A stretch of DNA of 64,000 bases from Oceanispirochaeta sp. (GCA_963666275.2 CAXXOA010000001.1:32001-96000), one strand, 5' to 3'. Positions 3,244-21,968 are shown, counted from the stretch's first letter. The notes: generated by a model from the sequence alone, not told the origin. Numbers and translations: made by a program.

Positions 3244-4016
3244 CGGTTCCTCAGGTATCTGGTTGTAAAAATGTTCTCGGGGATCTCTTCCAGCGAATAA
3301 TCATGAAAATCCAGAATGGACTTGTGGTCGGTCTGGACATTGTGCATGACGATGTTGGTCGGATAAATGGCGCCGTTGTTGTTGAGTGTCTCCTTGACTC
3401 TGTAGGTTTTCAGCAGGTTTTCGGAAAGATCGTAATAATCCCGGGCATAGAGGAAATAGTCTTCGGTGCTGTAGTAGTTGATCTGGTAGGCATAGCCCCT
3501 CTGCTGCCTCTCCTCCAGGCTCTTGGCCCAGTCTTTGATGACATGGCAGGTCCTGCCGTCTATAACCTGAGTCCCCAGATACTCTCTTTCATAGTTATCC
3601 TGGGTTTTCAGAATAAAATCGGAATAGGTAAAATCGCTGCCCATGAAATACCCGCCGCCCGACTGCTCCAGGGCCACCCTTTTTATACGGCGGACCGCCG
3701 GAAGATAGATCCACATATTGCTGTCATCGCCGTTGAAGAAGGTATGAAGCAGGATTCCCGTATCCCTTACCGTGGGGGGGTAGCTGAAGAGAAAGAGCAT
3801 GTTTGTCTGATCGTTTCCGACAATCTTCTGATAGGCCTGGGCCTCCACCTCGCGGACATCTCCTTTTTTGGAAATCATTTCCATCCGGATCGTTCCGCTC
3901 AGATTGGGAAATGTGAGGGTATCGCCGAAATTTTTCAGAATCTGGTCAACACTTACCTGGGCTGAAAGGATATTTAAAGGGATCAGAAAGATCAGTACTA
4001 TAAAGAATTTCTTCAT
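3240..4016 (-). CDS. Outer-membrane lipoprotein-sorting protein (LolA-like)
   Basis: Signal peptide; WIYLPAVRRIKRV, FMGSDFTYSD and C-terminal IFTTRYL motifs. Confidence 0.85.
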   Translation of the reverse strand: MKKFFIVLIFLIPLNILSAQVSVDQILKNFGDTLTFPNLSGTIRMEMISKKGDVREVEAQAYQKIVGNDQTNMLFLFSYPPTVRDTGILLHTFFNGDDSNMWIYLPAVRRIKRVALEQSGGGYFMGSDFTYSDFILKTQDNYEREYLGTQVIDGRTCHVIKDWAKSLEERQQRGYAYQINYYSTEDYFLYARDYYDLSENLLKTYRVKETLNNNGAIYPTNIVMHNVQTDHKSILDFHDYSLEEIPENIFTTRYLRNR

Positions 4017-6214: not shown

Positions 6215-6358
6215 CGATTACCCTTTCAGCACATTTGGCGAATCCTGGTTGCAGACAATCCTATAATCATGAATATTACTTAATCAGTATAAAATATTGC
6301 CGGGGGAATCTCAAGTTTTCCGCCCGGTTCCGGGAGTCATCCCGGTTCTTTCCTGTTC

Positions 6359-8542
6359 TCAGATTTTTCCCTCTTTCGCCTTGATGGCTATGACCTCTTT
6401 CAATTGAATATCCCTGCTGCTGTTTCCCGCCATGATCACAAATTCACCCGGTTCCAGACGCCAGTTTCCCCGGTAGGGATCAAAATACTGAAAGGCTCTT
6501 TTGCCCAGTGAAAATGTCAGATGCTCGGATTTTCCGGGGAGCAGAAAAATTTTCCGGAAGGCTTTCAGTTCTTTGGGCGGCCTGATCAGATCGCTTTCCG
6601 GGTCCCGGATGTAGATCTGCACCACCTCTGCTCCCGCCCGGGTCCCTGTATTTTTGACTTTCAGAGACACTTCGCAGGAAAAATCTCCCTTTGTCTCCAC
6701 TTTTACCTTCAGACCGGTCAGGCTGAAACTTGTATAGCTCATACCGAAACCGAAGGGAAAGAGGGGGGGGATTCTCTCCCGTTCAAAGTGGCGGTAACCT
6801 ACAAAGATCCCTTCAAAATACTCCATGTCGTGAATCCGGCGCAGATAGGGATTCCCCTGGCCCATGGAGATCTGCCTGACCGATGTTTTATCCGGATTGG
6901 TCACATAGTGGGCGGTGGAACCGAAGTCCTCCCAGTGTTCCGACATGGTAAAGGGGAGTTTTCCCGATGGATTGATCTTTCCGAACAGGATATCCGCCAG
7001 AGCCGGGCCGGCTGTCTCTCCCAGGTAGAAGCTGTGGATAAAGGCCCTGACCCTGTCGATCCAGCCGGTGGTGTTCGCGCCTCCACCGGCGGTCATGACC
7101 ACAAGGGTATTGGGGTTGGCACTGGCAATGGAGAGAATGCTGTCTGACTGTCCGTAGGGAAGATCCCAGGAGCGGTCCCAGCATTCGCTCTCCTCGGTAT
7201 GACTGAATCCGGCGCAGTAGACCACCGCCCGGGCCAGTTTTATCTTTTCCAGATCTTCTTCGGAAAGAGAGTTTTCGCTCCAGGGCAGATACTCCACTTT
7301 CAGCTTCCCCGCCGCCTCCTGAATGCCTGTGAGAAAGTCTATGCCTGCAGAGGTCCTGACATAGCTGCTCCCGCCGCCTCCTGTTTCGGTGTCTTTTGCC
7401 ATCCGTCCTGTGACGATGAGGGTGCCCTCTTCCTCCGGATCAAGAGGAAGGAAGTCATTGCTGTTTTTAAGAAGGATCATGCCTTCGGCTGCCACTTTCC
7501 GGGCCAGTTTTATCTGGTCTTCCGAATGAACGGGCTTTTCCGGAGCTTTCTGCGGACGATGATAGACGCCCTCTTTCAGGAGGGTTCCCAATAGGTTCCT
7601 CACCATCCTGTTCAGGTCGGATTCCCGGATTTTCCCTTTTTTCAGAGCTTTCCGTATCCTTTTGTCGGAGAACCATTTCCCCTGGGGCATCTCCAGGTCA
7701 AGGCCGTTCTTTACAGGCCCCGCGGTGCTGTACAGACTGTTCCAGTCACTGAGGACGAAACCGTCAAATCCCCAATCTTCTCTGAGAATCTCCTGAAGGA
7801 GCTTTCCGTTTTCGCTGGCGTAGGTTCCGTTCACAGGGTTATAGGCTGTCATGACAGCCCGGGCGCCGCCCTCTTTTACAGCCATCTCAAAGGCGGGGAG
7901 GTAGATTTCCCGGAGGGCCCTTGCATTGACTACGGAGTTTGTCTTATGTCTGTCGTATTCTGAATTGTTGCAGGCAAAGTGCTTTACAGCAGTGATCACA
8001 CCCTCTTCCCTGGCGCCCCTGATATAGGAGGCGGCCATTTTTCCCGCAAGGAAGGGATCTTCTCCCATGTACTCGAAGTTTCTTCCGCATGTGGGAACCC
8101 TGTAGATATTGACTCCCGGTCCCAGCAGAATCGAGACACCCCTGTTTCTGAACTCCTGAGCCAGGGCTTTCCCGGCCTGGCGGATCAGCTCTTCATCCCA
8201 GCTTGCCGCCATGGCCAGAGGCGCGGGAAAGGCTGTTCCTCCGGGAAAGCTTCTCAGGCCGGCTGTAGCGTCACTGCACCAGATACTGGGGAGGCCCAGC
8301 CGCGGGAGGCCCTGAATCGCCAGATCCTGATAACCGCTGATATACTGGATTTTTTCATCCAGGGTCATCGAATCCAGGAGCTGGTCCGTCAGTTCTTCCA
8401 TGGAAATGTCAGAAGAGGGAAGACCCTGGAAATCTGCATCCTCCACATCCTGCTTGTGCATTCTGCGGACACCCTTTCCGGGATCACTGATGCTGTCCAT
8501 CTTTTCGCTGATCTTTTTTTTCAACCCTTTGTTCTGAACCAT
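6359..8542 (-). CDS. Glycoside hydrolase family 3 beta-glucosidase
   Basis: GRNFEYMGEDP, KHFACN, nucleophile SDW, NPSGKLP, and a C-terminal Fn3-like domain (GAEVVQIY, ELKAFRK). Confidence 0.95.
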   Translation of the reverse strand: MVQNKGLKKKISEKMDSISDPGKGVRRMHKQDVEDADFQGLPSSDISMEELTDQLLDSMTLDEKIQYISGYQDLAIQGLPRLGLPSIWCSDATAGLRSFPGGTAFPAPLAMAASWDEELIRQAGKALAQEFRNRGVSILLGPGVNIYRVPTCGRNFEYMGEDPFLAGKMAASYIRGAREEGVITAVKHFACNNSEYDRHKTNSVVNARALREIYLPAFEMAVKEGGARAVMTAYNPVNGTYASENGKLLQEILREDWGFDGFVLSDWNSLYSTAGPVKNGLDLEMPQGKWFSDKRIRKALKKGKIRESDLNRMVRNLLGTLLKEGVYHRPQKAPEKPVHSEDQIKLARKVAAEGMILLKNSNDFLPLDPEEEGTLIVTGRMAKDTETGGGGSSYVRTSAGIDFLTGIQEAAGKLKVEYLPWSENSLSEEDLEKIKLARAVVYCAGFSHTEESECWDRSWDLPYGQSDSILSIASANPNTLVVMTAGGGANTTGWIDRVRAFIHSFYLGETAGPALADILFGKINPSGKLPFTMSEHWEDFGSTAHYVTNPDKTSVRQISMGQGNPYLRRIHDMEYFEGIFVGYRHFERERIPPLFPFGFGMSYTSFSLTGLKVKVETKGDFSCEVSLKVKNTGTRAGAEVVQIYIRDPESDLIRPPKELKAFRKIFLLPGKSEHLTFSLGKRAFQYFDPYRGNWRLEPGEFVIMAGNSSRDIQLKEVIAIKAKEGKI

Positions 8543-8677
8543 GAGCTGCTCCTTGCTGATTGCCCCCTATTATACTATAAGTCGAGGATACGTGCCAAAA
8601 CCAATAGAGAATGGTTGGTCTTTTATATCCTTTCATTCTATAATATATCCATCTTACTATCCATGAAGCGGGGTTTT

Positions 8678-9181
8678 ATGTCCATGAGACGCAGCTTTTT
8701 CCTGATCGGTCTGTTTTTTCTGGTCTCCAGCGGGCTTTTCGCCCTGGATCCGGGAGAGGTCTTTCCCTCTTTTTCGGTTGTTTCCGGTGACGGGAAAATC
8801 CTGATCTCCCCCGATCTGGAGGGAAGATGGGGCCTCGTCTTTTATGAAGACAGAAATGAAACGGAAAAAAACAACGCTCTGAAGAGTTATTTTCAAAATC
8901 AGAGCCTTGATGATGAACTGGTGGCTCTTGTCTTCATTGCCGACTGTACCGATGCGGGACTCAGAAAAAAGATCTGGGAAAATCAGCTGAAAGACAGCAG
9001 CCGCAGGATGGGTGTCACTGTGTACGGCGACTGGAACGGAAAACTCAAGAGAGGGCTGGGTGCCGTGGAAGGGGAAGCCTTTTTTTATCTGATTGATCCT
9101 GAGGGTATTATCCGCTACTTTAAAGAAGGGACTGTCCCAGAGGGGGATTTTCAGGAGATTCAGGCGCTGCTTAATCCCTGA
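8678..9181 (+). CDS. Exported thioredoxin-fold protein (YtfJ/redoxin-like)
   Basis: 3' part of track ORF 7979..9181; start is ATG 8678 or 8684; signal peptide, DWNGK and YLIDPEGIIRY motifs. Confidence 0.6.
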   Translation: MSMRRSFFLIGLFFLVSSGLFALDPGEVFPSFSVVSGDGKILISPDLEGRWGLVFYEDRNETEKNNALKSYFQNQSLDDELVALVFIADCTDAGLRKKIWENQLKDSSRRMGVTVYGDWNGKLKRGLGAVEGEAFFYLIDPEGIIRYFKEGTVPEGDFQEIQALLNP

Positions 9182-9199
9182 ACGCTATTCCATATTCAG

Positions 9200-10540
9200 A
9201 TGAAAAGACAAACTCTATCTAACCGCCAGCTTCTGTTTCTCTATTTTTCTTCGATTATTCTGGTCGGGATCCTTCTCCTGTCTCTGCCTGTCTCCTACCG
9301 GTCCGGTTCTCCCCGTCCCCTGATTGACAGGGTTTTCACTGCGGTCTCAGCCGTCTGCGTGACCGGTCTGGCAACCTTTCCCACAGAGGAGCTTTCCCGG
9401 ACAGGGCAGGTGGCTCTCCTTTTTCTGATTCAGCTGGGCGGCCTGGGGTATATCGCGTTTACCACGCTGTTCCTCTTTTTTCCGGGGTTGCGCTTCACCT
9501 TCCGGGATTCCTCCATTATCGAGCAGTATTTCGGTGACAGCCGTGTTCTCAAGCCTAAGAGAATTATCCGGAATATCCTGGGAACAACCTTTTTTCTGGA
9601 GCTCGCAGGAGCCCTGATCCTTTGGGGCGGGATGAGGCGGCAGGGGGTGGATTCCCCCATTTTCTCCGCTGTGTTTCATGCGGTTTCCGCCTTCTGCAAT
9701 GCAGGCTTTTCCCTCTATCCCGACAGCCTTACCCGATTCTCCGCCAATCCGCTGGTCATGGGCGGGGCGTCTCTCATGATTGTCACGGGAGGACTGGGGT
9801 TTATGGTTCTCTGGAACCTGGGGGGCAAACTGAGGAATCCCGGTGAGGTCAGACTGATGTATCACTCCCGGGTCATGCTTGTCCTGACACCCCTGTTTAT
9901 TCTGGCGGGGTTTTTCTTTTATCTTATACAGGAACGCACCGGAGCCTTTTCCGGAATGGACGCCGGAGAAGCGGCGGGAGCGGCTCTGTTTCAGTCCATT
10001 ACCACCCGGACAGCCGGGTTCAATACGGTAGATCAGGGGGATCTCTCTCTGCCCTCGCTTTTTATCACTCTCTTTCTCATGATTACAGGAGGCGGTTCCG
10101 GATCGACCGCAGGGGGGCTGAAGGTGACGACGATCTTTCTGCTTTCCCTGATCCTCATCAAAGGGGTGGATGATCACGGGGAGGTTACTTTTCTGCAGAG
10201 AAGGATCAGCCGGGATCGTCTCAACCGGGCCGGGGTGTACCTGATGAAAGCCATGGCTATACTTTTTATATCCATTCTGCTGATCCTGTTTGTGGAGGAT
10301 TCCCCCTGGGGCAGCTCCCCGGGCTTTATGGAGATCCTTTTTGAAGGGTTCTCCGCTCTGGGCACTGTGGGCCTGAGTATGGGAATTACTCCGCAGCTCC
10401 ACATTCTGAGCAAGATCATTCTTATTTTTACCATGTTTGCCGGGAGGATCGGCCTTTTCGCCATGATCATGCCTCCGGCTTATGAACAGGAAGTTCAGAA
10501 ATATATCCGCTATCCGAAAGGGGAGGTCCTGATAGGATGA
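9200..10540 (+). CDS. trkH: Trk/Ktr potassium uptake membrane subunit
   Basis: Pore motifs SAVCVTGL, AFCNAGF, RTAGF, GTVGLS; GSTAGGLKVTT; MFAGRIG. Confidence 0.93.
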   Translation: MKRQTLSNRQLLFLYFSSIILVGILLLSLPVSYRSGSPRPLIDRVFTAVSAVCVTGLATFPTEELSRTGQVALLFLIQLGGLGYIAFTTLFLFFPGLRFTFRDSSIIEQYFGDSRVLKPKRIIRNILGTTFFLELAGALILWGGMRRQGVDSPIFSAVFHAVSAFCNAGFSLYPDSLTRFSANPLVMGGASLMIVTGGLGFMVLWNLGGKLRNPGEVRLMYHSRVMLVLTPLFILAGFFFYLIQERTGAFSGMDAGEAAGAALFQSITTRTAGFNTVDQGDLSLPSLFITLFLMITGGGSGSTAGGLKVTTIFLLSLILIKGVDDHGEVTFLQRRISRDRLNRAGVYLMKAMAILFISILLILFVEDSPWGSSPGFMEILFEGFSALGTVGLSMGITPQLHILSKIILIFTMFAGRIGLFAMIMPPAYEQEVQKYIRYPKGEVLIG

Positions 10541-11241
10541 AACAGTTTGCCATAATAGGATTGAGTTCCTTTGCCAAAAGGATCATTGAAGAGCTGGAGG
10601 CGTATCCCTGCGATATCCTTCTGATCGATAAGGATCCTGCCGCTATAGAGCTCTACAAGGACAGGGTTTCCCGTTCTTTTATAGCGGATGTTCTCAATGA
10701 AGAGACCATCCGCCGTCTGGTTCCCCCGGATATCAACGGCGTGGTTCTGGATCCGGGCGACAGGATCGAAGTGTCAATTCTTGTCACCAATTATCTGAAA
10801 AAAATGGGTGTGAAGAATATCTTTGTCCGGGCCGAAACCAATGAACATGGCGAGATCCTGGATCTTGTGGGGGCGGATCATGTGATTTTTCCCAACAGGG
10901 AGGCGGCTATCCGGATCTCTCCCATGCTTCTCACATCCCATCTGTTCAACTACCTTCCCATCAGCGACAATCTTGTCATTGCCGAGGTCAAGGCGCCGGA
11001 CCCTCTGATAGGGAAAACCCTGATTGAGGCGGATCTGCGGAAGACACTGAATCTGAATGTCATTGCTGTCCGGGAGGGGCAGGAGCAGGACTTCCTTTTC
11101 CGGAAGGCCGAATACAGGATCCAGCCGGGAGACATCCTTCTGCTGGCGGGGAGTCAGGATAATATCCACAGTTTTGCCGGAACCCAGAGGAATGAGAGTC
11201 CCGAAGGACTGAAACAGTTCTACAGGCGTCTGTTCAAATAA
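10537..11241 (+). CDS. trkA: Trk/Ktr regulatory subunit (RCK_N + RCK_C)
   Basis: KQFAIIGL, GADHVIFP and IGKTL...LNVIAV motifs; ATGA overlap with trkH. Confidence 0.92.
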   Translation: MKQFAIIGLSSFAKRIIEELEAYPCDILLIDKDPAAIELYKDRVSRSFIADVLNEETIRRLVPPDINGVVLDPGDRIEVSILVTNYLKKMGVKNIFVRAETNEHGEILDLVGADHVIFPNREAAIRISPMLLTSHLFNYLPISDNLVIAEVKAPDPLIGKTLIEADLRKTLNLNVIAVREGQEQDFLFRKAEYRIQPGDILLLAGSQDNIHSFAGTQRNESPEGLKQFYRRLFK

Positions 11242-11355
11242 AAGTCTCCTCTCCTCCGTCCGTATTCTCCGGAATAAAAGAGGAATCGGGAAAACCTTAT
11301 ATTTTGGTCATACCTGACTCCGGTAATATTCCCCTGCCGGGGGAAAATCCATATA

Positions 11356-13233
11356 ATGGCGATCATGAATAAATTTTTCAACGGAAGGTCCCTGGAGTTA
11401 CTGGCTCCTGCCGGGACTTTTGATATTTATAAGACTATTATTGATTCCAAATGTGATGCGGTCTACTGCGGAGGAGAAGTTCTCAATATGAGACTGATCC
11501 GCAAGGGCTACAATTTAAGCAATGAAGAGCTGAAAGAAGCGGTTTATCTGGCCAATGAGCGGGATAAAAAAGTATACATAACAGTCAACAGCCTGCTGGA
11601 TCCCTCGGAACTCTCTCAGGCGGAGGAGTACCTCTCCTTCCTGGAGGAGATTCAGCCCCACGGTCTGATCATTCAGGACGCGGCTGTTCTGGACCTTGTA
11701 AAACGGAAAAAGCTGAACCTGACCCTGCACGGTTCGGTGATGATGAATATCCACAATCTGGATATGATCCGCTTTTTTGAAAAACAGGGTGTCAGCCGGG
11801 TGGTCCTCTCCCGGGAGATGTCTCTGAAGGATATCCGGGAGCTTTCGGCCCGTACGGATATGGAACTGGAGTACTTTACCCACGGGGATATGTGTGTGGC
11901 CCATGGGGCCCAGTGCCTCTACAGCTCCTGGCTTTTCGGTATGTCCGGCAGCCGGGGCCGCTGTCTCAAACCCTGTCGCTGGCCCTATTCCCGGCTCGGA
12001 ACGGATGAGGACAAACCCTTTCCCCTGGCCGTGAAAGACCTCAGCATGTACAGCTACCTGTCCGATATGATCCTGGCGGGAGTCTCATCCTTCAAGATCG
12101 AGGGACGTATGCGGGAGAAAGAGTTCATTGCCAGTCTTGTGAATACCTACGGAGAGGCTCTGGAGCGTTTTCTGGATGATCCCTACGGAGCGTCCCATGG
12201 GGATCCGGAAGACATGGAACCCTTTAAAAAGCGGGATTACTCGACAGGCTATGCCTTCGGTACCCCCGGCATAAAGAATATCAATACCCGGGGAGAAGGT
12301 TCCGGGAAGTTCTATTCAACAGGAAAGATGTTCAGCACCCCCACCCGGGAGAGGGAGATCAACGGGGAGGAATCCCTGCCTGCGGGAAGTCCCTCTGATA
12401 GCGTCCCTCTGGAAATGGCCGTTAAGGTAAACTCTCCCGATCAGGGCCGGCTGGCTCTGGAATACGGAGCCAGACGGATCTATCTGAGCGCCGAACCTTT
12501 TGCTCCGGATCTTCCTGTCTCCCGGAAAGATCTGGCAGAACTGGCGGATCAGTGCGGGCAAGCCGGTGCAGATCTCTATTTCAGTCTGCCCCGTATGATG
12601 TCGGCTCAGCAGAGCGACCTCTTCAGAGCCTACTTTTCAAGGCCCCTTCCGGTGAAAGGCGTCCTTGCCGGCCAGGCGGGAGTCCTTGAGTTTTTGAAAA
12701 GCAGCGAGTATTCTCTTGTCTGCGATACCCCCATGAATCTGTACAATGCCAGGGCAATCCGCTTTTATGCGGATCAGGGTTTCCAGGGTTGGACTCCTTC
12801 CCTGGAGCTTCCTTTTGACTCACTCCTTTCCCTTCCGGAAGATCTGAAGGCTCTGGGTTGCGAGGCCCGGGGGGAGGTGGTTCTCCACGGTCTGCCCACT
12901 GTGATGTATATGGACCACGATGTGAGCCGGCGGCAGGAGGATCGGGTGGAGCTGGACACTCCCGAATCCCGGCTGACCATACGGCGGGACTGGTGGAACC
13001 GGTATCATCTGCTTCCCCACAAAGAGCTCTCCCTGCTGCCCCGTCTGCCCGAACTGGTCTCCGCGGGGTACAGTCGTTTCCGTCTGGAACTCCAGGGCTA
13101 CGGGCCTGCGGAATCCCGGGAGGTTCTGAGGGCCTGCGGAGAGTCTCTGGCTGACCCCGCTTCGGGAGGGGGTATCCTGAAAAATCTGAAACCCATCGGA
13201 GGAGGCTTTACCTATGGCGCACACCATTTCTGA
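11356..13233 (+). CDS. U32-family Fe-S protein with a second, degenerate U32-like C-terminal domain
   Basis: ELLAPAG; HGDMCVAHGAQC...RGRCLKPCR (CX6CX15CX3C); SFKIEGR. The C-terminal half repeats U32 motifs without the Cys cluster. Confidence 0.9.
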   Translation: MAIMNKFFNGRSLELLAPAGTFDIYKTIIDSKCDAVYCGGEVLNMRLIRKGYNLSNEELKEAVYLANERDKKVYITVNSLLDPSELSQAEEYLSFLEEIQPHGLIIQDAAVLDLVKRKKLNLTLHGSVMMNIHNLDMIRFFEKQGVSRVVLSREMSLKDIRELSARTDMELEYFTHGDMCVAHGAQCLYSSWLFGMSGSRGRCLKPCRWPYSRLGTDEDKPFPLAVKDLSMYSYLSDMILAGVSSFKIEGRMREKEFIASLVNTYGEALERFLDDPYGASHGDPEDMEPFKKRDYSTGYAFGTPGIKNINTRGEGSGKFYSTGKMFSTPTREREINGEESLPAGSPSDSVPLEMAVKVNSPDQGRLALEYGARRIYLSAEPFAPDLPVSRKDLAELADQCGQAGADLYFSLPRMMSAQQSDLFRAYFSRPLPVKGVLAGQAGVLEFLKSSEYSLVCDTPMNLYNARAIRFYADQGFQGWTPSLELPFDSLLSLPEDLKALGCEARGEVVLHGLPTVMYMDHDVSRRQEDRVELDTPESRLTIRRDWWNRYHLLPHKELSLLPRLPELVSAGYSRFRLELQGYGPAESREVLRACGESLADPASGGGILKNLKPIGGGFTYGAHHF

Positions 13234-14470
13234 TACTAACCGGTCCGATTATATCGGTCCCGAGGGGATCATAGAAAAGAAACAGGAGTATCTGATGCCC
13301 TGTTCCTTTCATTTTTACAAAGACCCTCCCCAGCTTGTAAAAGGGAAAGGCACAAAGCTCTACGACAGCTCAGGGCGGGAGTATACCGACTTTTTTGCAG
13401 GGGTTTCGGTCATGAGCTGCGGCCACTGCAATGAGAAGATCAATGCAAAGGTTATGGAACAGCTCAATACGCTGCAGCATACCACTTCGATCTATCTGAC
13501 TCAGCCTGTGGTGGATCTGGCGCAGAAACTGGCGGAAGTCCTCCCGGGAAATCTGAAGCAGAGTTTTTTCTGCAACTCCGGATCCGAAGCCAACGAGGGA
13601 GCCATGCTGCTGGCCCGGGTTGCGACGGGAAAGCGGGAGTTCCTGGCTCTGGAGAGAAGTCTCCATGGAAGGACCTTCCTGACCTCGGGAGCCACGGGGA
13701 TTCCCATGTGGCGGACCGACCCTTTTGCGGATGAAAACCCTGTGCATTTTGCCTCTGATGCGGATCATGTCTGCCGGATCCTGGAAGAAAAGGGTGATGC
13801 CATCGCCGCTCTGATGGTGGAACCCATTCAGGGCAACGCGGGGATCCGTCCTCTGGAGCCGGATTTCTTTGAAAAGGTGGGCCCCCTGCTGAAGGAGAAG
13901 AAGGTGCTTCTTATCAGTGATGAGATCCAGACGGGGTTTGCCCGGACAGGACGGATGTTTGCCATTGAGCATTACGGGATCGTTCCGGATATCCTGACAG
14001 GAGCCAAAGCCCTGGGGAACGGATTTCCCATCGGTTTCTTTGCGGCCGTCCCCGAGGTTGCCGCCTCTTTTACAAAGCCCTCGGCTTCCACCCTGGGGGG
14101 GAACCCCGTCTCCTGTCAGGCCGGACTGGCTGTCCTGGATTTTATCCGGGAGGAAAAATTGATGGAAAAGGCGGATACACTGGGTGGAATTCTGAAAAAG
14201 GGACTGACCAGGTTCAGCGGTTTGACTGACCATCTGGGTGAGCCCCGGGGCATGGGCCTTATGCTGGGGATTCCCGTGCTGCCCGAGGGAACTTCCCAGG
14301 CGGCGGATATCACCGACAGGATCCTGGAAGGGATGAAAGACCGGGGATTCCTTATCGGAAAGAACGGTATGGGCCGGGATGTTCTGGCCTTTCAGCCTCC
14401 TCTTGTCATTTCAGAAGAGGAAATAAAAGAGATGCTTGCGGCATTGGAAGAACTATTAACGGAGTTATGA
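13214..14470 (+). CDS. Class III PLP-dependent aminotransferase
   Basis: NSGSEANE, LHGRT, EPIQG, DEIQTGFARTG, PLP lysine in GAKALGNG, STLGGNP. Confidence 0.93.
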   Translation: MAHTISDTNRSDYIGPEGIIEKKQEYLMPCSFHFYKDPPQLVKGKGTKLYDSSGREYTDFFAGVSVMSCGHCNEKINAKVMEQLNTLQHTTSIYLTQPVVDLAQKLAEVLPGNLKQSFFCNSGSEANEGAMLLARVATGKREFLALERSLHGRTFLTSGATGIPMWRTDPFADENPVHFASDADHVCRILEEKGDAIAALMVEPIQGNAGIRPLEPDFFEKVGPLLKEKKVLLISDEIQTGFARTGRMFAIEHYGIVPDILTGAKALGNGFPIGFFAAVPEVAASFTKPSASTLGGNPVSCQAGLAVLDFIREEKLMEKADTLGGILKKGLTRFSGLTDHLGEPRGMGLMLGIPVLPEGTSQAADITDRILEGMKDRGFLIGKNGMGRDVLAFQPPLVISEEEIKEMLAALEELLTEL

Positions 14471-15336
14471 TGAAAAAGATTTTTACTGTTTTATATATTG
14501 CCTGCCTGACCCTTTCGGTTACGGCGGGAGGTCAGAAGGAAGGGGCTCCGGCGGATCAGCCTGTGCGGATCGGTGTTATGCCCGATGCGGGAGCTCTGCC
14601 TCTGTTCCTGATGGAGGGGGTCGAGACAGTTCCCTTTATGAGCGCCAAAGAGCGGGATACGGCTATGCAGCTGGGAGAACTGGACGGGATTATGACCGAC
14701 ATGGTCGCGGTGGTTTCCTACGGTCAGCGGGGCATGCCTCTGAAAGTCATGACAATCACAGAAAGCCGGTTCCTCCTGGTGGGGCATCCCGGTTTTTCCG
14801 AAGAGGACACCTGGAGCGTGGGGCTTTCGGAGAACACAGTGATTGAGTTTATGGTGGATCAGCTGGCTCAGGGGATCGATGTTGAAAAAGTCGGTATTCC
14901 CCAGGTCCCGGTGCGCATGGAGATGCTCCGGAACGGAAAAATCCCCCTGGCCTGTCTGACCGATGCCATGGCCTGGCCCCTACTGAGCCGGGATTTTCCC
15001 ATTGTAAGAGATCAGGCCGATACAGATCTGGAACCTGCTGTCCTGGCATTTTCTGCCGAGTATGCCGGAAAAAACAGTCACAAACTGGCGGATTTCAGCC
15101 GCCGATGGGATGAGGCGGTGGATAAGATTAACGCCAGTCCTGAAGAGTACCGGTCCCTCCTTCTGGAAAAAATCCGCCTCCCCGAGGACACAGATCACCC
15201 CTATCCCATGCCTGTATTCAGATCCATCCAGCTGCCTCCTGAGGGAACGGTGGAAAAGGTTTTAACCTGGTTTGATGAAAAATACGGACTCACCTCTCCG
15301 GTCTCCTACGGAGATCTGATGCTGCAGGGGGAGTAG
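14467..15336 (+). CDS. ABC transporter substrate-binding protein (NitT/TauT/NMT1-like)
   Basis: Signal peptide; IGVMPD...PLF, SAKERDTAMQLGELDG and VPVRMEML motifs; same operon as a NitT/TauT-type ATPase and permease. Confidence 0.82.
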   Translation: MMKKIFTVLYIACLTLSVTAGGQKEGAPADQPVRIGVMPDAGALPLFLMEGVETVPFMSAKERDTAMQLGELDGIMTDMVAVVSYGQRGMPLKVMTITESRFLLVGHPGFSEEDTWSVGLSENTVIEFMVDQLAQGIDVEKVGIPQVPVRMEMLRNGKIPLACLTDAMAWPLLSRDFPIVRDQADTDLEPAVLAFSAEYAGKNSHKLADFSRRWDEAVDKINASPEEYRSLLLEKIRLPEDTDHPYPMPVFRSIQLPPEGTVEKVLTWFDEKYGLTSPVSYGDLMLQGE

Positions 15337-15339
15337 TCC

Positions 15340-16788
15340 ATGTCCTATAAAAGTCTGCAGGATTTTATCAAGCAGCTGGAGAAGGAGGGAGAGCTGAAAC
15401 GGATCAGCCTTCCTGTGGATTCTCATCTTGAAATTACCGAAATTACAGACAGGGTCAGCAAGCAGAACGGTCCGGCCCTTCTTTTTGAAAATGTGAAGGG
15501 TTCTGAATTCCCCGTGCTTATCAATGCCATGGGGAGCTACAAAAGGATGGCCATGGCTCTGGGGGCCGCGTCCCTGGACGAAAAGGCCGCTGAACTGGAA
15601 GATCTGATGGAGTGGGGTTTTTCCCAGATGCGACAGCTGGACATTATGAGCTTCTTTCCCAAGATCAAATGGGCCCGGCTCTTTCTGCCCCACAAGGTCC
15701 TTTCCGCTCCCTGCCAGCAGGTGGTGGATCATGACCCCGATCTGGGGACACTGCCTGTTCTTACCTGCTGGCCCGGTGACGGGGGCCCCTTTTTCACACT
15801 GCCTCTTGTGATTACAAAAGATCCCGAAACGGGGGCCCAGAATATGGGAATGTACAGGATGCAGGTGTACGACAGAAACACAACGGGAATGCACTGGCAC
15901 CACCACAAGGACGGAGCCCATTTCTATCAGAAATACAAGGACCAGGGAGAGAAAATGCCCGTAGCTGTGGCACTGGGTGATGACCCTGCGGTGACCTATT
16001 CGGCCACAGCCCCGCTTCCCGAGGGAATCTCGGAGCTCTTTTTTGCAGGATACCTCCGGGGAAAGCCGGTGGATACCGTTAAGTGCATCACTTCGGATCT
16101 TCAGGTTCCGGCCAATGCGGAGTTTATCCTGGAAGGCTATGTGGATCCTTCGGAACCGCTGCGCCGGGAAGGCCCCTTCGGGGATCATACGGGTTACTAC
16201 TCCCTGGCCGATGACTTTCCCGTCTTCCATGTGACCTGCATTACCCGGAAGAAAAAGCCTGTTTTTCCGGCTACCATCGTGGGACAGCCTCCCATGGAGG
16301 ACTGCTATATGGCTAAAGCTACGGAAAGGCTCTTTCTGCCGCTTCTGAAGAAGATGCATCCCGAGATCATCGATATGAACCTTCCCCTGGAAGGGGTTTT
16401 TCACAACTGCGCCATCATCTCCATAAAAAAACGCTTTGCCGGGCATGTCCATAAAGTTCTGAGCAGCCTCTGGGGGCTGGGGCAGATGATGTACACCAAA
16501 ATGATCATTGTGGTAGACCACGATGTGGATGTGCAGGACCTGAGCCTCGTGATGTGGAAGGTCTTCAACAATATCGATGCCGAAAGGGATCTGATCATGA
16601 GTCAGGGCCCCCTGGATACTCTGGATCATGCTTCCCCCCGGGCCCGGTTCGGTACCCGCCTGGGCGTGGATGCCACCCGGAAAGGGCCCATGGACGGCCA
16701 TCACAGGGAGTGGCCTGAAGACATTGTGATGAGCGATGAAATCAAAGAACAGGTAGACCGCAGATGGAAGGAGCTGGGTTTTGAATAA
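15340..16788 (+). CDS. ubiD: UbiD-family prFMN-dependent decarboxylase (menaquinone-pathway type)
   Basis: LEITEI, GPALLFENV, NMGMYRMQ, EGPFGDHTGYY, LGVDATRK. Confidence 0.95.
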   Translation: MSYKSLQDFIKQLEKEGELKRISLPVDSHLEITEITDRVSKQNGPALLFENVKGSEFPVLINAMGSYKRMAMALGAASLDEKAAELEDLMEWGFSQMRQLDIMSFFPKIKWARLFLPHKVLSAPCQQVVDHDPDLGTLPVLTCWPGDGGPFFTLPLVITKDPETGAQNMGMYRMQVYDRNTTGMHWHHHKDGAHFYQKYKDQGEKMPVAVALGDDPAVTYSATAPLPEGISELFFAGYLRGKPVDTVKCITSDLQVPANAEFILEGYVDPSEPLRREGPFGDHTGYYSLADDFPVFHVTCITRKKKPVFPATIVGQPPMEDCYMAKATERLFLPLLKKMHPEIIDMNLPLEGVFHNCAIISIKKRFAGHVHKVLSSLWGLGQMMYTKMIIVVDHDVDVQDLSLVMWKVFNNIDAERDLIMSQGPLDTLDHASPRARFGTRLGVDATRKGPMDGHHREWPEDIVMSDEIKEQVDRRWKELGFE

Positions 16789-17683
16789 GCTCATCACCCT
16801 GGCGGGACGGGAGCTGGAAAGGGGAAAGGGGATCAGCCGGGCCGTGATGCTGGAGCATACCCTTTTCTCCCTGCCCCTGGCTGTGAGCGCCTTCCTTCTG
16901 GAAAGCAGGGGCCGTCCGGCTCTTATGGATGTGGTCTGGATTCTCCTGGCCGTATTCGGAGCCCGCAACGGCGCCAATGCGCTGAACCGCCTGATTGACC
17001 GGAAAATCGATGCGGCTAATCCCCGGACAGCCGGGAGGGATCTGCCCTCAGGGAAGGTGAAAGCCCTGGATCTTTGGCTTTTCACGGCTTTCTGCGGCAT
17101 CCTCTTTATAGTGTCCGCAGCCATGCTGAACCCGCTCTGTCTGGCCCTTGTGCCAGTCGGTGCCGTTCTGATCGGAGGCTACTCCTTTACCAAACGGTTC
17201 ACCTGGCTCTGCCATTTCTGGCTGGGCGTCACCTGCTCCGCCGCGGTGATGGGCAGTTATCTCGCCCTGACCGGCCACTTTGAGATCCGGTATTTTCCTC
17301 TGACCATCGCCGCGGCCCTCTGGATCGCCGGTTTTGATATGATCTACGCCCTTCAGGATATTGAGCACGACAGAGCCCACGGGATCCATTCGGTTCCCGC
17401 CCGGTTCGGCCGCAGCGGCGCTCTTGTGATCATCGCTTTGTGCCATGCCGGAGCGGTTTTGTTTTTTGCCCTGAATGCCCTGTTTTTTCCGGTCCGGATC
17501 TGGTACTTCCTGGGACTGGCCGGGGCGTCTCTTCTCCTGATCGCGGAAAACCTGATCGCCCGTAAGGGGAGCGTCAAATGGATTCCCCTGGCGTCCTACC
17601 ATCTGAATCAGATCCTTTCGCCTCTGTTTCTTCTCTTTGTCCTGCTGGATATCTATCTGCCCGGAGGACTGTATGGGAATTGA
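16781..17683 (+). CDS. ubiA: UbiA-family aromatic prenyltransferase (MqnP-like)
   Basis: TTG start; EHTLFSLP, NRLIDRKIDAANPRT, YSFTKRFT, FDMIYALQD; multiple TM helices. Confidence 0.93.
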   Translation: MNKLITLAGRELERGKGISRAVMLEHTLFSLPLAVSAFLLESRGRPALMDVVWILLAVFGARNGANALNRLIDRKIDAANPRTAGRDLPSGKVKALDLWLFTAFCGILFIVSAAMLNPLCLALVPVGAVLIGGYSFTKRFTWLCHFWLGVTCSAAVMGSYLALTGHFEIRYFPLTIAAALWIAGFDMIYALQDIEHDRAHGIHSVPARFGRSGALVIIALCHAGAVLFFALNALFFPVRIWYFLGLAGASLLLIAENLIARKGSVKWIPLASYHLNQILSPLFLLFVLLDIYLPGGLYGN

Positions 17684-17698
17684 AGGACAGGGCCGGAG

Positions 17699-18451
17699 AT
17701 GATTGCCTTCAGGGACCTCTCCTACTGTTACGGCAGCGGCAAAGCTGTGATCCCCTGTCTGAACGGCTCCTGGGAAGCCGGCAGGATCCACGGACTGATC
17801 GGCCCCTCGGGCTGCGGAAAGAGCACGCTCCTCTATCTGATCGCGGGACTTTTAACTCCTTCGGGAGGGGATCTGCTTGTGGATTCTGAGACTCCGGTTC
17901 CGGGAAGGTATAAAACCGCTGTGATCCTGCAGAATCACGGGCTTTTCCCCTGGAAAACAGCCTGGGAAAATATTGCTCTGGGCCTCAAAATCCGCAAAGA
18001 GAAACCGGCTGTGATCCGCCGGAAGGTGGCGCAGGTTCTGGAGGAGCTGGGTCTTCAGGGAAAGGAGAAATCCTATCCCCGGGAGCTCTCGGGGGGAGAA
18101 CAGCAGAGGCTTGCCATCGGGCGGGCGCTGGTGCTGGATCCGGAACTCCTTCTGCTGGATGAACCCTTTTCCGCTCTGGATGCCATGACCCGGGAGAGAC
18201 TGCAGGACAGCCTCTGGATGCTGAAACAGAGGCGTTCGGAAGGGACGGGACTGACTGTTGTCCATGTGACCCACAGTATTGAAGAGGCTGTCTTTCTGAG
18301 TGACCGCATTCATATCATGGATCAGGCCGGTGAGATCCACAGCACGGAAAATCATACCCCCGGCCCGGGATACAGAATGGAAAGCTCCTATTTCGAACGC
18401 TGTGTGGCCCTGAGAAAGGCCTTTGATCTTCATACGGGAGGGGAGATGTGA
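17699..18451 (+). CDS. ABC transporter ATP-binding protein (NitT/TauT type)
   Basis: GPSGCGKST, LFPWKT, LSGGEQQR, LLLDEPFSALD, HVTHSIEEA. Confidence 0.95.
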   Translation: MIAFRDLSYCYGSGKAVIPCLNGSWEAGRIHGLIGPSGCGKSTLLYLIAGLLTPSGGDLLVDSETPVPGRYKTAVILQNHGLFPWKTAWENIALGLKIRKEKPAVIRRKVAQVLEELGLQGKEKSYPRELSGGEQQRLAIGRALVLDPELLLLDEPFSALDAMTRERLQDSLWMLKQRRSEGTGLTVVHVTHSIEEAVFLSDRIHIMDQAGEIHSTENHTPGPGYRMESSYFERCVALRKAFDLHTGGEM

Positions 18452-19173
18452 AAAGACTGATTCCTCCGCTGCTCTTTTTTCTTTTTCTCTGGTGGGTGCT
18501 GGCCCTTGTTCTGGCCATCCCGTTTCTGCCGGCACCGGACAGGGTGATACTGGAACTCTTTGATCAGTTCCGTCAGGGGCTCCTGGGGCCTCATCTGGCG
18601 ATTTCCCTCTACAGGGTTCTCACGGCTCTGGCTCTGGCGTTTATCCCCGCCCTGTTTCTGGGAATCCTCTCGGGCGTAAACCGGAAGATCGACCGAGTTG
18701 TCAGCCCCGGAGTATACCTGCTCTATCCGATTCCCAAAGTGGCCCTTCTGCCAATTATCCTCCTCTTTCTGGGGCTTGGAAACGGCTCGAAGATCTTCTT
18801 TGTGGCTCTTATTATTTTCTTTCAGTTCTATCTGAACTTCCGTGATGAAACCGCCGGGATCAATCAGCGGTACTTTGATTCCCTGACCACTCTGGGAGGG
18901 GGCCGTATCGATCAGTGGAGACACATCATTCTGCCGGCTCTGCTTCCGAGGATCTACTCTTCCCTGCGGATGACCCTGGGAACCGCCATTGCCGTCCTGT
19001 TCCTGGCGGAAACTTTTGCCACCAGGCAGGGAATCGGCTGGTACATCATGGATGCCTGGTCCCGGTTCGCCTATGTGGAGATGTATGCGGGCATTGCCGC
19101 TCTGAGTCTGTCGGGGCTGGTTCTCTTCCTTCTGCTGGATCTGGCGGAAGCTTTGAGCTGCCGCTGGAAGTGA
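18448..19173 (+). CDS. ABC transporter permease (NitT/TauT type)
   Basis: GTG start; YPIPKVALLP, ILPALLP and GIGWYI motifs. Confidence 0.93.
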   Translation: MKRLIPPLLFFLFLWWVLALVLAIPFLPAPDRVILELFDQFRQGLLGPHLAISLYRVLTALALAFIPALFLGILSGVNRKIDRVVSPGVYLLYPIPKVALLPIILLFLGLGNGSKIFFVALIIFFQFYLNFRDETAGINQRYFDSLTTLGGGRIDQWRHIILPALLPRIYSSLRMTLGTAIAVLFLAETFATRQGIGWYIMDAWSRFAYVEMYAGIAALSLSGLVLFLLLDLAEALSCRWK

Positions 19174-19260: not shown

Positions 19261-20397
19261 CTATCCCTGAAATATATAATTATTTAGCCAAAGTTCAAAA
19301 ACCGGATCCAGAATGGTCAGGGATGATGATGTTATATCAATGATGTCATTCTCTTCCAGCCGTTTCTTATTTTTACTGACGTTCCCGGAAGTTCCCAACT
19401 TGTATTTTTGCAGGATCGATGCAGAGTTCAGCGAGGTTTCTCCATTACATAGTGCCCTGAGTAGATTTATCTGACTTGGACTGAAGCCTTCGAATTCCCT
19501 TGTAAAGAAAGGGCGGTTTGTATTGATTAACTGGTCTATTCCTGTATGAAATATTTCTTCGGTGACAATCTTTTCTGTCAGTGTCCAGATGATATGGGAC
19601 AGTTGTTGAACATAATAGGGGTGGTTTTTCATATGATCGGCAATTCTTCCGCAAAGAGCAGATGGAATGTCCTTTCCTGTTCTCTGAAAAGAATCTCCGA
19701 TGAAATCCACCCAGTGCTGCCGATCAATTTTTTCAAGAAAAAGAACTGTACCGAATCGATAGAACGGACTATTCTGGTTGTGGAAAATATGACTCATCAT
19801 ATGACGTTTACTGCCATACAGGCAGTAGGTCGTTAAACTGTGTGTCTGCCAGCGGCTGCGCAGCTCTTTCAGCAGTTCTTTGGGCTGTCCATATTGTGAG
19901 AGATTCTGAAATTCATCGATACATATCAGAAATTTTATTTTCTTCCTGCTAGCGATTTTCTCGGGTAAATCGAGAATCTCATGACGATGTTCTGAGACTT
20001 CACTAATATTGAAACTGAGAGATATATCTCCTCCCGCTGTATCAGGAGCAAGGGTAATCTTTGGGACTATGTTTTTCAGAAATGTTTTGGTATTCTGAAT
20101 TATTTCTTCCAGCTTTCCCGATGACGCTTTAATAACCTCTTTGGCATAAAGTTCCAGAAACTCCTCTTCAGTTCTTATACTGAAAAGATCTATCATTATG
20201 ACACGATATTGCTGATTTGGAATGAATGTCTCATCCATATACTTTTTTATTAATGAAGATTTGCCCCAGCGACGGGGAGATATAAGGATGGTCGATAAAC
20301 TGCTGGACAGGTTGGATTTGAGTAATTTCATGATCTCTTCCCTGTCTGTGAAGGATCTTCCTGATACAATTCTACCGAAAGAAAAGGGCGAAGTCAT
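19261..20397 (-). CDS. AAA ATPase (archaeal-ATPase/ATPase_2-like) with probable C-terminal winged helix
   Basis: ATG 20397 with AAGGAG; PFSFG, FTDRE, SPRRWGKSS, IDEFQ, HPYYVQ, DPVFELWL; visibly AT-richer than its neighbours. Confidence 0.85.
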   Translation of the reverse strand: MTSPFSFGRIVSGRSFTDREEIMKLLKSNLSSSLSTILISPRRWGKSSLIKKYMDETFIPNQQYRVIMIDLFSIRTEEEFLELYAKEVIKASSGKLEEIIQNTKTFLKNIVPKITLAPDTAGGDISLSFNISEVSEHRHEILDLPEKIASRKKIKFLICIDEFQNLSQYGQPKELLKELRSRWQTHSLTTYCLYGSKRHMMSHIFHNQNSPFYRFGTVLFLEKIDRQHWVDFIGDSFQRTGKDIPSALCGRIADHMKNHPYYVQQLSHIIWTLTEKIVTEEIFHTGIDQLINTNRPFFTREFEGFSPSQINLLRALCNGETSLNSASILQKYKLGTSGNVSKNKKRLEENDIIDITSSSLTILDPVFELWLNNYIFQG

Positions 20398-20406
20398 TTG
20401 AAACTC

Positions 20407-20449
20407 CTTGGTATGATACTCGATAGTAGCATACCAAGAGGTATCATGC
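20407..20449. promoter_or_regulatory. Three 9-bp palindromic boxes at 15-bp period, also forming a long inverted repeat
   Basis: GTATGATAC (20411), GTAGCATAC (20426), GTATCATGC (20441); CTTGGTATG/CATACCAAG inverted repeat at 20407-20438. Confidence 0.55.
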
Positions 20450-20480
20450 AATTAATAATTTATCTGAGAGAAGCTGGATA

Positions 20481-21968
20481 TCAGTTCAGATCTTCGATCC
20501 TGACGATTCCGATTTTATTCAGAACAATGCAGAAGTGGTAGATCTCTTCCTCTTCTATCTGACTGTCTTCCCTGAGGCTCATAATCAGATGGATTCTGTA
20601 GACCCGGTTTCCTTTGATTTTCAGTTTTTTCCGGTTCTCCAGGCGGTAGAAGATGTCTTTGGGATCATCCATCTCCTTGAGCCAGTCCTGAATGTTGATC
20701 CGGATTATTTCGGTGATACTGCTGGTCCGGCTGTGATGGTCCCTCAGTTTCCGGGACTTCAGCTCTATGATCCGTTTATAGTGAATGATATCCTGTTCCG
20801 GCAGGATCGAGCGGAAAGGGTTGGGCTGCTGATACCGGGCTTTCAGGATCTTCACCGGGACATCTCCGGCCTTTTCAAATCCCGCATATCCCCTGCTGAC
20901 ACCCACTTTTTTCTGCTGGGCCCTGTCAAAAAGGAGCGAGAGCTGATCCGAGGTAATCCGGGGCATCAGTTTCTTCATCCACTCCCGGAGGACTTCCTTG
21001 ATTCTGTCTTTGAACACATAGGACATGACAATCAGCAGTATCCAGGGAAGGCTGTTGGGAATGAACATCTTTCCGGCGAAGATCGTCACAAGCACCGCGA
21101 AAATCATAGCCACACCGGCGGCGATTCCCGCTATGATATGGCCCACTCTATGAGGGGTTCTGCTCTCTTCCAGGTTCATGTACATGGCTGACTGGGACCA
21201 CTTTTTGAGGATACTCTCCCTGTAGGCCATCCTTTCCCCCGAGTAGGGGTCGTTTTCCCTGTAGAGGTACTCGTATTTCATGCTCTCCCTGTAGACTGTT
21301 TCCGCCCGGGTTATCTCCTCATAGGAACTGAGCAGTTCCTCAGGGTTCTCCAGGGACAGGCTGTAGGTAAACAGCCGGTTCAGGGCCCTCTCCGTGGTTA
21401 TGCTTATGGATTCATCCGCCCAGGCCAGGGCGGTTCTCTGGACTTCTGAAACCCGGGGATTGATAAAGGCTTCGTGGAGTTTCCGGAAGGTTTTGAGAAA
21501 GGTCTGAACCTCATCCAGAAAGACATGGATCCTTCTGATACACATACTGTCCATATTGCGTTTCTGGATCTCATTGTTTATCAGTTCTACCGTGTTATCC
21601 ACTTCCACCTTATAGATATTCGCAAGAATCTGAAGCTCATGGAGGAGGACATCCCTCCTGCGGGGCTGCTTGATTTCAGGAATTTCCATAAAATTGAGGA
21701 TCCGGGTAATCGGGCTGAGTTTGTTTTTTTTATCCACCAGCATTTTCAGAGAAAGCCCGGGGGTGGAAAACCTTGTATAGACTTTAATGTTTTCTATAAA
21801 ACGTTTTACACCTATACGCCTTCCTGTGACATTCAGCTGGTTGGGGAAGAAAAAGTAGAAATCCATCTGGTAGTCGGTGAGCTTTTTATCCTTCAGGAGG
21901 GGATATTCCGATTTCAGTTCAAGGTGATGGCGGCTATGGACCCGGATGGAACAGTTGTATTCTTTCAT
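20481..21968 (-). CDS. Hypothetical membrane protein with two central TM helices
   Basis: 495-aa ORF filling the gap; hydrophobic IIAGIAAGVAMIFAVLVTIF and WILLIVMSYVF; no motif recognised. Confidence 0.75.
   Translation of the reverse strand: MKEYNCSIRVHSRHHLELKSEYPLLKDKKLTDYQMDFYFFFPNQLNVTGRRIGVKRFIENIKVYTRFSTPGLSLKMLVDKKNKLSPITRILNFMEIPEIKQPRRRDVLLHELQILANIYKVEVDNTVELINNEIQKRNMDSMCIRRIHVFLDEVQTFLKTFRKLHEAFINPRVSEVQRTALAWADESISITTERALNRLFTYSLSLENPEELLSSYEEITRAETVYRESMKYEYLYRENDPYSGERMAYRESILKKWSQSAMYMNLEESRTPHRVGHIIAGIAAGVAMIFAVLVTIFAGKMFIPNSLPWILLIVMSYVFKDRIKEVLREWMKKLMPRITSDQLSLLFDRAQQKKVGVSRGYAGFEKAGDVPVKILKARYQQPNPFRSILPEQDIIHYKRIIELKSRKLRDHHSRTSSITEIIRINIQDWLKEMDDPKDIFYRLENRKKLKIKGNRVYRIHLIMSLREDSQIEEEEIYHFCIVLNKIGIVRIEDLN

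Follow-up and report, generated by a model that had tools for sequence, protein, structure and literature searches.

What is the task of an operon that joins a U32 protein and an aminotransferase to an ATP-binding cassette (ABC) importer, a UbiD-family decarboxylase and a UbiA-family prenyltransferase? The question is raised by a stretch of 64,000 nucleotides from Oceanispirochaeta sp. (GCA_963666275.2, CAXXOA010000001.1:32001-96000), here called the window, in which seven co-directional open reading frames (ORFs) lie on the plus strand at positions 11356-19173. On balance we think it probable that the two modules of this operon jointly supply a membrane quinone to an anaerobic electron-export chain based on NDH-2, in an organism that is unable to make the quinone ring. 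The operon is most likely a means of precursor salvage coupled to an undescribed pair of tailoring enzymes, in a setting that resembles flavin-based extracellular electron transfer (FLEET).

The operon and its two modules

The genes of the operon are as follows; start codons were assigned mechanically as the first start after a stop (aa, amino acids; PLP, pyridoxal 5'-phosphate; SBP, substrate-binding protein; prFMN, prenylated flavin mononucleotide).

11356-13233, plus strand: U32, a two-barrel U32 iron-sulfur (Fe-S) protein, 625 aa (PF01136, 253.6 bits)
13214-14470, plus strand: aminotransferase, a class-III (ArgD-like) PLP enzyme, 418 aa (PF00202, 304.8 bits)
14467-15336, plus strand: SBP, the lipoprotein SBP of a NitT/TauT-type ABC importer, 289 aa (signal peptide and modelled fold; no Pfam family)
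15340-16788, plus strand: UbiD, a UbiD-family prFMN decarboxylase of MqnL type, 482 aa (UbiD_N/UbiD/UbiD_C; TIGR03701, 638.8 bits)
16781-17683, plus strand: UbiA, a UbiA-family aromatic polyprenyltransferase, MqnP-like, 300 aa, TTG start (PF01040, 171.2 bits)
17699-18451, plus strand: ABC transporter ATPase, 250 aa (PF00005, ABC_tran, 107.1 bits)
18448-19173, plus strand: ABC importer permease, SsuC/TauC/SaoP-like, 241 aa, GTG start (PF00528, BPD_transp_1, 60.5 bits)

In this order, from 5' to 3', the genes are joined by a 20-nt overlap, a 4-nt overlap, a 3-nt gap, an 8-nt overlap, a 15-nt gap and a 4-nt overlap. A preliminary description, generated from the sequence alone, had reported seven co-directional genes overlapping or lying at most 15 nt apart, and the ORF list and junctions confirm it. 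By Pfam, the operon is flanked by TrkH and TrkA upstream and by minus-strand genes downstream. Promoter and terminator scans of the operon found consensus-level sites only and no convincing internal terminator. Between 10500 and 19600 no Rfam family was found over threshold, flavin mononucleotide (FMN) and thiamine pyrophosphate (TPP) riboswitches included, and a single sub-threshold match to Histone3 was taken as chance.

A profile scan with one genome per species gave 80 loci, 60 of them Paenibacillaceae-like, five from spirochetes and 15 from other Bacillota. The PLP enzyme gene directly follows the U32 gene in 78 of them, across Spirochaetota and Bacillota; in the remaining two (L026 and L085) the available DNA ends less than 0.7 kb past the U32 gene. 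Clustering of this kind, in 78 of 80 loci and across two phyla, goes far beyond what chance would produce. UbiA lies within the locus in 69 of the 80, an MqnL-type UbiD (at least 50% identity) in 14 and the SBP in 12. Where no UbiA is found near U32, as in Anaerovorax, Vallitalea and Fusibacter ferrireducens, an adjacent UbiD-UbiA pair is present elsewhere in all three genomes searched (UbiD 59-62% identical). The co-occurrence of the U32 and aminotransferase genes with ubiD/ubiA in other genomes, on which the preliminary description had made its pathway depend, is thus borne out.

Within the order (38 genomes), the U32 C-terminal domain was found in eight genomes, all among the 11 members of one genus, UbiA in 13 and NDH-2 in 25; the same domain was found in none of 300 other sampled genomes of the phylum. 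All four spirochete genomes with UbiA but without U32 carry the series SBP-UbiD-UbiA-UbiX-ATPase-permease, the rest of the cluster being absent. One genome of the same genus with this series only has GH3, a 400-aa ORF, TrkH and TrkA arranged as in the window, followed directly by the SBP gene. Since the same TrkA-SBP junction occurs in a congener without the U32 and aminotransferase genes, these two form a cassette that is present or absent at a single chromosomal site.

The seven-gene operon is therefore real and is made of two modules. Module A, the U32 and aminotransferase genes, is a separable accessory cassette outside the core, and module B comprises the SBP, the MqnL-type UbiD, UbiA, the ABC ATPase and the permease. 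The earlier claim of a single pathway including U32 and the aminotransferase holds in so far as the genes are functionally linked; the pair itself is, however, an optional addition, as the operons with module B alone and the congener's site make plain. UbiX is absent from inside all three cassette-bearing spirochete operons (the window, L016 and L017), lies between UbiA and the ATPase in all four cassette-free ones (L104-L107), and is kept in the Bacillota operons that have both modules (nine loci).

Absent ring synthesis and a candidate precursor importer

The genome is 97% complete. It holds no PF02621 (MqnA/D) match and its best MqnE match reaches 35.9 bits against 434.55 (MqnB and MqnC were not searched), that is, the early futalosine genes MqnA/D and MqnE are missing from it. 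No MenB was found over cut-off (MenD and MenF were not searched by hidden Markov model, HMM), nor was MenG/UbiE, the best MenG match being 50.9 bits against 158.35, and no cytochrome bd was found. UbiC was found in none of the 38 genomes of the order, using a narrow model that matched only one control genome. By Pfam, the other ORFs of the window include no ring-building gene, in agreement with the preliminary description, and the genome-wide results for MqnA/D, MqnE and MenB extend that statement beyond the window.

Among 14 carrier genomes, MqnA/D was over cut-off in only two, both Paenibacillus, and MenB in none. In these two Paenibacillus genomes MqnA/D lies beside a second UbiA and MenG, which constitutes a normal futalosine pathway, and the same two are the only ones of 25 genomes with MenG over cut-off. 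A replacement of MenG by module A was considered and ruled out, as the two show no complementary distribution across the 25 genomes. Carriers with the NitT/TauT importer lack ring synthesis, and carriers with ring synthesis lack the NitT/TauT importer; this mutual exclusion is our strongest argument that the importer brings in the ring. Importers of soluble menaquinone precursors are, according to passages of Ravcheev and Thiele 2016 (PMC4746308), needed for incomplete pathways and were unannotated at that time. We found no importer of a soluble menaquinone ring precursor described since 2016, and the operon is a concrete candidate for one.

The SBP has a lipoprotein-type signal peptide and a model with a predicted local distance difference test score (pLDDT) of 93.8. 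Its best fold match is SsuA (2x26, E 4.7e-12), with further matches to TauA, ThiY and PqqT, which binds pyrroloquinoline quinone (PQQ); a PDB sequence search gave no match. The best NCBIfam matches of the permease are SaoP, SsuC and TauC, all under cut-off. The SBP has the SsuA/TauA/ThiY fold and an export signal; with the BPD_transp_1 permease and the ATPase it makes up an ABC importer of the NitT/TauT group. The 70 matches to the SBP are named NitT/TauT SBP by JGI, and Firmicute counterparts match NMT1_2. We propose that SBP, ATPase and permease would bring a soluble precursor of the ring into the cell; the likeliest candidate is a para-dihydroxy aromatic acid, for example 1,4-dihydroxy-6-naphthoate.

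The ABC system might instead import a compound that is not a ring, such as a flavin for UbiX/prFMN and for flavinylation, a pyrimidine or a sulfonate, while the ring enters by diffusion or by another carrier. ThiY, SsuA and TauA belong to the same SBP fold family, and FLEET-type systems depend on flavin delivery according to passages of PMC9864754. However, SBP/ABC genes are joined to UbiD-UbiA in all 12 of the 80 loci that have an SBP homolog, in four operons with module B alone and in two of three other loci, and the region searched with Rfam holds neither of the two riboswitches named above. Moreover, the SBP family at 45% identity or more is small (68 of the 70 matches, the query included), its named members all being spirochetes except for one metagenome-assembled genome labelled Bacteroidetes. 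We regard import of a non-ring compound as quite unlikely.

UbiD passes the MqnL equivalog model TIGR03701, whose cut-off is 495.9 bits, but stays, at 449.6 bits, under the 788 required by NF008175, the model for UbiD of E. coli type. UbiA passes only the generic TIGR01475 (254.5 bits against 180.8), and all three MqnP models score it higher than the proteobacterial UbiA model does. Under the import reading, the MqnP-like UbiA would attach a long prenyl chain, provided by a HepT-like synthase encoded beside NDH-2, and the MqnL-type UbiD would then remove the carboxyl group with prFMN from UbiX, whose only gene in the genome is on a different contig, flanked by two more UbiD paralogs (450 and 445 aa). 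Because no MenG/UbiE was found in the genome, the product would be a demethylmenaquinone-like carrier. Import, prenylation and decarboxylation in this order had been put forward in the preliminary description, and they fit the SBP-UbiD-UbiA-UbiX-ABC operon of ring-less relatives, beside NDH-2 and a prenyl synthase. The UbiX region itself (L101, G000:C2:1111000-1128000) contains, among genes at 3589-12603, flavodoxin-like and FMN-reductase genes, an aldehyde dehydrogenase, an Fe-alcohol dehydrogenase and a GntR regulator, and by its gene content looks like an aromatic-acid (de)carboxylase island.

The operons with module B alone also bear on the nature of the ring. They encode no hydroxylase, and one of them faces NDH-2 and a prenyl synthase, so that the imported acid should already carry both oxygens; together with the MqnL assignment, this points to dihydroxynaphthoate rather than 4-hydroxybenzoate. 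In a benzenoid pathway like anaerobic ubiquinone synthesis, imported 4-hydroxybenzoate would be prenylated and decarboxylated to a prenylphenol, which U32 would hydroxylate to the quinol in the manner of UbiU/UbiV. The passing of the generic TIGR01475 by UbiA, the score of UbiD on the E. coli model and the 140.8 bits of U32 on the UbiU model are in keeping with such a pathway. Yet the operons without U32 would then yield only a prenylphenol, which is no redox carrier, although one adjoins NDH-2 and a prenyl synthase; furthermore, UbiD passes the MqnL and not the UbiD model, U32 falls outside the UbiU branch, and no UbiG/UbiE-type methyltransferase was found over cut-off. A benzenoid route appears highly unlikely to us, and salvage of a naphthoate remains the reading we prefer.

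The U32 protein and its PLP partner

The match of U32 to Peptidase_U32 (PF01136) far exceeds the gathering score of 22.4. Its AlphaFold2 model (pLDDT 91.3, predicted template modelling score 0.92) consists of two tandem barrels, and Foldseek matched the model to the two-barrel module of MetH and to the U32 structure 5d88; a PDB sequence search gave no match. The N-terminal catalytic barrel carries C33 and the motif C180-x6-C187-x15-C203-x3-C207, and these five cysteines are invariant in 57 of 57 U32 homologs, in line with the Fe-S cysteine motif of U32 hydroxylases. We take C180, C187, C203 and C207 to be ligands of a 4Fe-4S cluster, by analogy with UbiU/UbiV. The C-terminal barrel is a degenerate U32-like domain without conserved cysteines and accounts for a second, weak U32 match at 12649-13089 of the window. 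This two-domain build is not a unique fusion, since long RlhA-like U32 proteins show a weak second U32 match too. In a congener (G311:C9:106341-107163) the U32 C-terminal domain is split over two frames, with matches that end at 106904 and start at 106900, either by a frameshift or by an assembly error. The cultured species Oceanispirochaeta crateris has a U32 of 65% identity and also encodes the SBP.

U32 is 26-33% identical to each of UbiU, UbiV, RlhA and TrhP of E. coli and scores below every NCBIfam equivalog cut-off (UbiU 140.8 against 440; UbiV 71.1 against 275). A tree was built from 33 N-terminal domains: 12 belong to database homologs, 15 to proteins of five further carrier genomes, two to paralogs in this genome and four to the E. 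coli proteins just named. In it the cluster-linked U32 proteins form their own clade with 100/100 support and a long stem, apart from the TrhP-like proteins, UbiU and UbiV; the branches of UbiV, UbiU and one 311-aa row are very long, which leaves the root and the placement of these three unsure. The UbiU/UbiV-like identity originally suggested for U32 is accordingly given up, its clade being sister to the RlhA-like long proteins. The genome has a separate TrhP-like gene (408 aa; 36% identity with TrhP of E. coli) and an RlhA-like gene (728 aa), and other carriers likewise hold separate genes of both kinds. The cluster U32 is therefore a third paralog and not the RNA hydroxylase, and its identity as an RlhA or TrhP ortholog is ruled out by these separate orthologs and by its own clade. 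Grouping with RlhA/TrhP, which the preliminary description had named as speaking against a quinone role, thus applies to the sister relation with RlhA-like proteins but does not extend to membership of their branch.

The best NCBIfam match of the PLP enzyme is argD (TIGR00707, 333.1 bits, under the cut-off of 410), and the nearest solved structure is an acetylornithine/acetyl-lysine aminotransferase (1vef, 222 bits). The conserved PLP lysine K265, within an AKALGNG motif, and a DE(I/V)QTGF motif are invariant in 11 of 11 sequences and, with the PF00202 match, place the protein among the class-III aminotransferases. HemL and ArgD proper were rejected as identities: the enzyme passes none of the equivalog models, and the genome has further class-III paralogs. 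The invariance of the cysteine motif and of the PLP lysine makes both proteins of module A look active. A complex prediction with U32 residues 12-625 and aminotransferase residues 33-418 returned a score of 0.00, which gives no verdict.

The U32-aminotransferase pair probably alters the ring, module A being in our proposal an optional cassette for this purpose; like the imported ligand and the order of the steps, this role is one that we infer. The most economical chemistry would be to hydroxylate a ring carbon without O2 and then to transaminate the keto tautomer that results. Spelled out in full, U32 would hydroxylate a free carbon of a demethylmenaquinone-type ring or its precursor, and the PLP enzyme would transaminate the keto tautomer to yield a low-potential, rhodoquinone-like amino-naphthoquinone, an O2-independent two-step amination by enzymes unrelated to RquA, with the linked ABC system as the first dedicated menaquinone ring-precursor importer. 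As a whole this detailed version is a speculative one that we think unlikely. It could just as well be that the pair works on the free acid, prior to its prenylation.

A different use of the pair ahead of prenylation would be to make the acid for UbiA from another compound, or to build the ring from an intermediate of the shikimate pathway such as prephenate. The U32 relative TrhP is described by NCBIfam as prephenate-dependent, both proteins appear soluble (no membrane family matches) and come first in the operon, and Paenibacillus loci have module A and UbiA without the NitT/TauT importer. However, in every ring-less carrier examined the importer is kept alongside module A, the Paenibacillus genomes already have MqnA/D and MenG beside a second UbiA and so need no new ring route, and an ArgD-like enzyme has no obvious ring-forming role. 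Such a supply of the acid or ring by module A seems improbable to us, to the same degree as the detailed amination scheme, and we continue with import of the ring and its later alteration.

The electron-export setting and known systems

In Paenibacillaceae-like loci, the U32-aminotransferase-UbiA trio directly follows NusG_II, PF07456, two energy-coupling factor (ECF) ATPases and EcfT (53-54 of the 80 loci), of which PF07456 presumably corresponds to EetB and NusG_II to EetA. In 44 loci a prenyl synthase and a 626-aa NDH-2, the latter ending in a DoxX-like tail, are found a few kb from the trio, and ApbE lies upstream of it in 18. Anaerovorax has a contiguous series of NDH-2, NusG_II, PF07456, prenyl synthase, UbiD, UbiA, ATPase and permease with ApbE nearby, and in Vallitalea the SBP gene faces NDH-2, NusG_II, PF07456, UbiD, UbiA, UbiX, ATPase, permease and an FMN_bind protein. 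The spirochete relative whose module-B operon faces NDH-2 and a prenyl synthase also has an FMN_bind protein there. One Paenibacillus locus (L034:14724-15916, minus strand) has an insertion sequence element (rve integrase and HTH_Tnp_1) between the trio and the prenyl synthase and NDH-2 genes.

The Oceanispirochaeta genome encodes a 670-aa NDH-2-like protein that shares 38% identity over 634 aa with the FLEET-like NDH-2 of Paenibacillus, and a HepT-like prenyl synthase gene adjoins it:

L102 (G000:C1:2466000-2484000), genes 8507-17260: prenyl synthase and NDH-2, facing a reductase set

The facing genes encode an FMN_bind and flavocytochrome-c-type reductase, a CitA/DcuS-like sensor kinase, a DpiA-like regulator and a second FAD reductase, and the region looks, by gene content, like a regulated extracytoplasmic reductase system. 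With ApbE at a further site, the genome has components that mark FLEET-like electron export, namely NDH-2 and its dedicated prenyl synthase, ApbE and a protein that is a target of flavinylation, all of them away from the operon. The FLEET locus of Listeria and Enterococcus comprises ndh2/ndh3, dmkA, dmkB, eetA, eetB, fmnB and pplA, and EetB, part of an ECF transporter that serves FmnB, binds FAD, as stated in passages of PMC9864754. The genes around the trio in Paenibacillaceae-like loci agree with this composition. According to abstracts on L. plantarum, electron export there can run on exogenous quinones such as 1,4-dihydroxy-2-naphthoate (DHNA).

Several observations weigh against supply of an imported quinone ring to NDH-2. 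The first concerns a second prenyltransferase in the genome, which is without MenB:

L135:6974-7906 (G000:C3:240976-241905), minus strand: MenA-type DHNA prenyltransferase (NF004752, 338.5 bits against 289)

A MenA-like gene is present in 17 of the order's 38 genomes, and at least nine relatives have it no more than a few kb from NDH-2, so NDH-2 could be served by the MenA route alone. With this enzyme present, the operon is not the genome's only route to a quinone; a DHNA route via MenA may feed NDH-2 as well, and the presence of MenA suggests a ring other than DHNA as the substrate of the operon. The operon's UbiA fails all three MqnP models (258.6 against 430, 200 against 420 and 196.7 against 375), and the SBP fold family is broad, binding sulfonates, taurine, pyrimidines and PQQ too. 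None of the 23 non-Paenibacillus genomes has MenG, whether they carry module A or not. Only two of the 60 Paenibacillaceae-like loci have an MqnL-type UbiD, the best match in the genome being 31-32% identical in two of two genomes, and decarboxylation is therefore not tied to module A. Regarding the cassette itself, the U32 clade is sister (98/96) to long RlhA-like RNA hydroxylases and not to UbiU, and enzymes of the class-III fold also include racemases, phospho-lyases and decarboxylases. Finally, a tblastn search of this genome with Paenibacillus NusG_II and PF07456 for EetA/EetB-like genes gave no match at E<1e-5, no HMM search being made.

Around the operon, a 396-aa AAA/ORC-Cdc6-like ATPase and a 495-aa protein without a real family are encoded at 19261-21968 on the minus strand, tail to tail with it. 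The 400-aa ORF upstream of TrkH-TrkA (7979-9181, plus strand) has no Pfam or NCBIfam family and is kept in relatives at 35-51% identity (L016, L017 and L104). Its mechanically assigned start overlaps the opposite-strand GH3 gene by about 560 nt, and the true start is thus probably later.

The operon introduces a new U32 clade with an obligate PLP partner, tied to quinone prenylation in two phyla, which would extend O2-independent ring chemistry beyond ubiquinone and RNA. Both modules are linked to FLEET-like electron export in spirochetes, Clostridia and Paenibacillaceae, so that the quinone used may differ between lineages, and the presence or absence of the cassette within one genus offers a ready comparison for mass spectrometry. 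In the literature covered, which excludes subscription journals, we found no publication that connects U32 together with a class-III aminotransferase to any of UbiA, FLEET loci and a ring importer.

Among known systems, the late futalosine steps of MqnP, MqnL and MqnM, predicted by Ravcheev and Thiele 2016, share with the operon a UbiA-type prenyltransferase, a UbiD-type decarboxylase, here one that passes the MqnL model, and UbiX. In passages of that study (PMC4746308) mqnP, mqnL and mqnM are found only in genomes with early Mqn genes, whereas this genome lacks MqnA/D and MqnE, its operon includes a dedicated ABC importer and its UbiA fails the MqnP models. With UbiU/UbiV, TrhP and RlhA the cluster U32 has in common the U32 barrel and the conserved four-cysteine motif, but it differs in its second barrel without cysteines and in its PLP-enzyme partner. 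RquA, which is methyltransferase-like, makes the amino-quinone rhodoquinone from ubiquinone; if module A aminates a quinone to lower its potential, the two would be functionally analogous, without homology between RquA and a hydroxylase paired with a class-III PLP enzyme. FLEET loci resemble the system described here in an NDH-2 with a C-terminal extension, a dedicated prenyl synthase, ApbE, FMN_bind proteins and reductases, and a locus-specific prenyltransferase that feeds a demethylmenaquinone-like pool. In contrast to FLEET, the prenyltransferase here is of UbiA/MqnP type and not of MenA type, a separate decarboxylase is needed, and a U32-aminotransferase pair and a candidate ring importer, neither known in FLEET loci, are attached.

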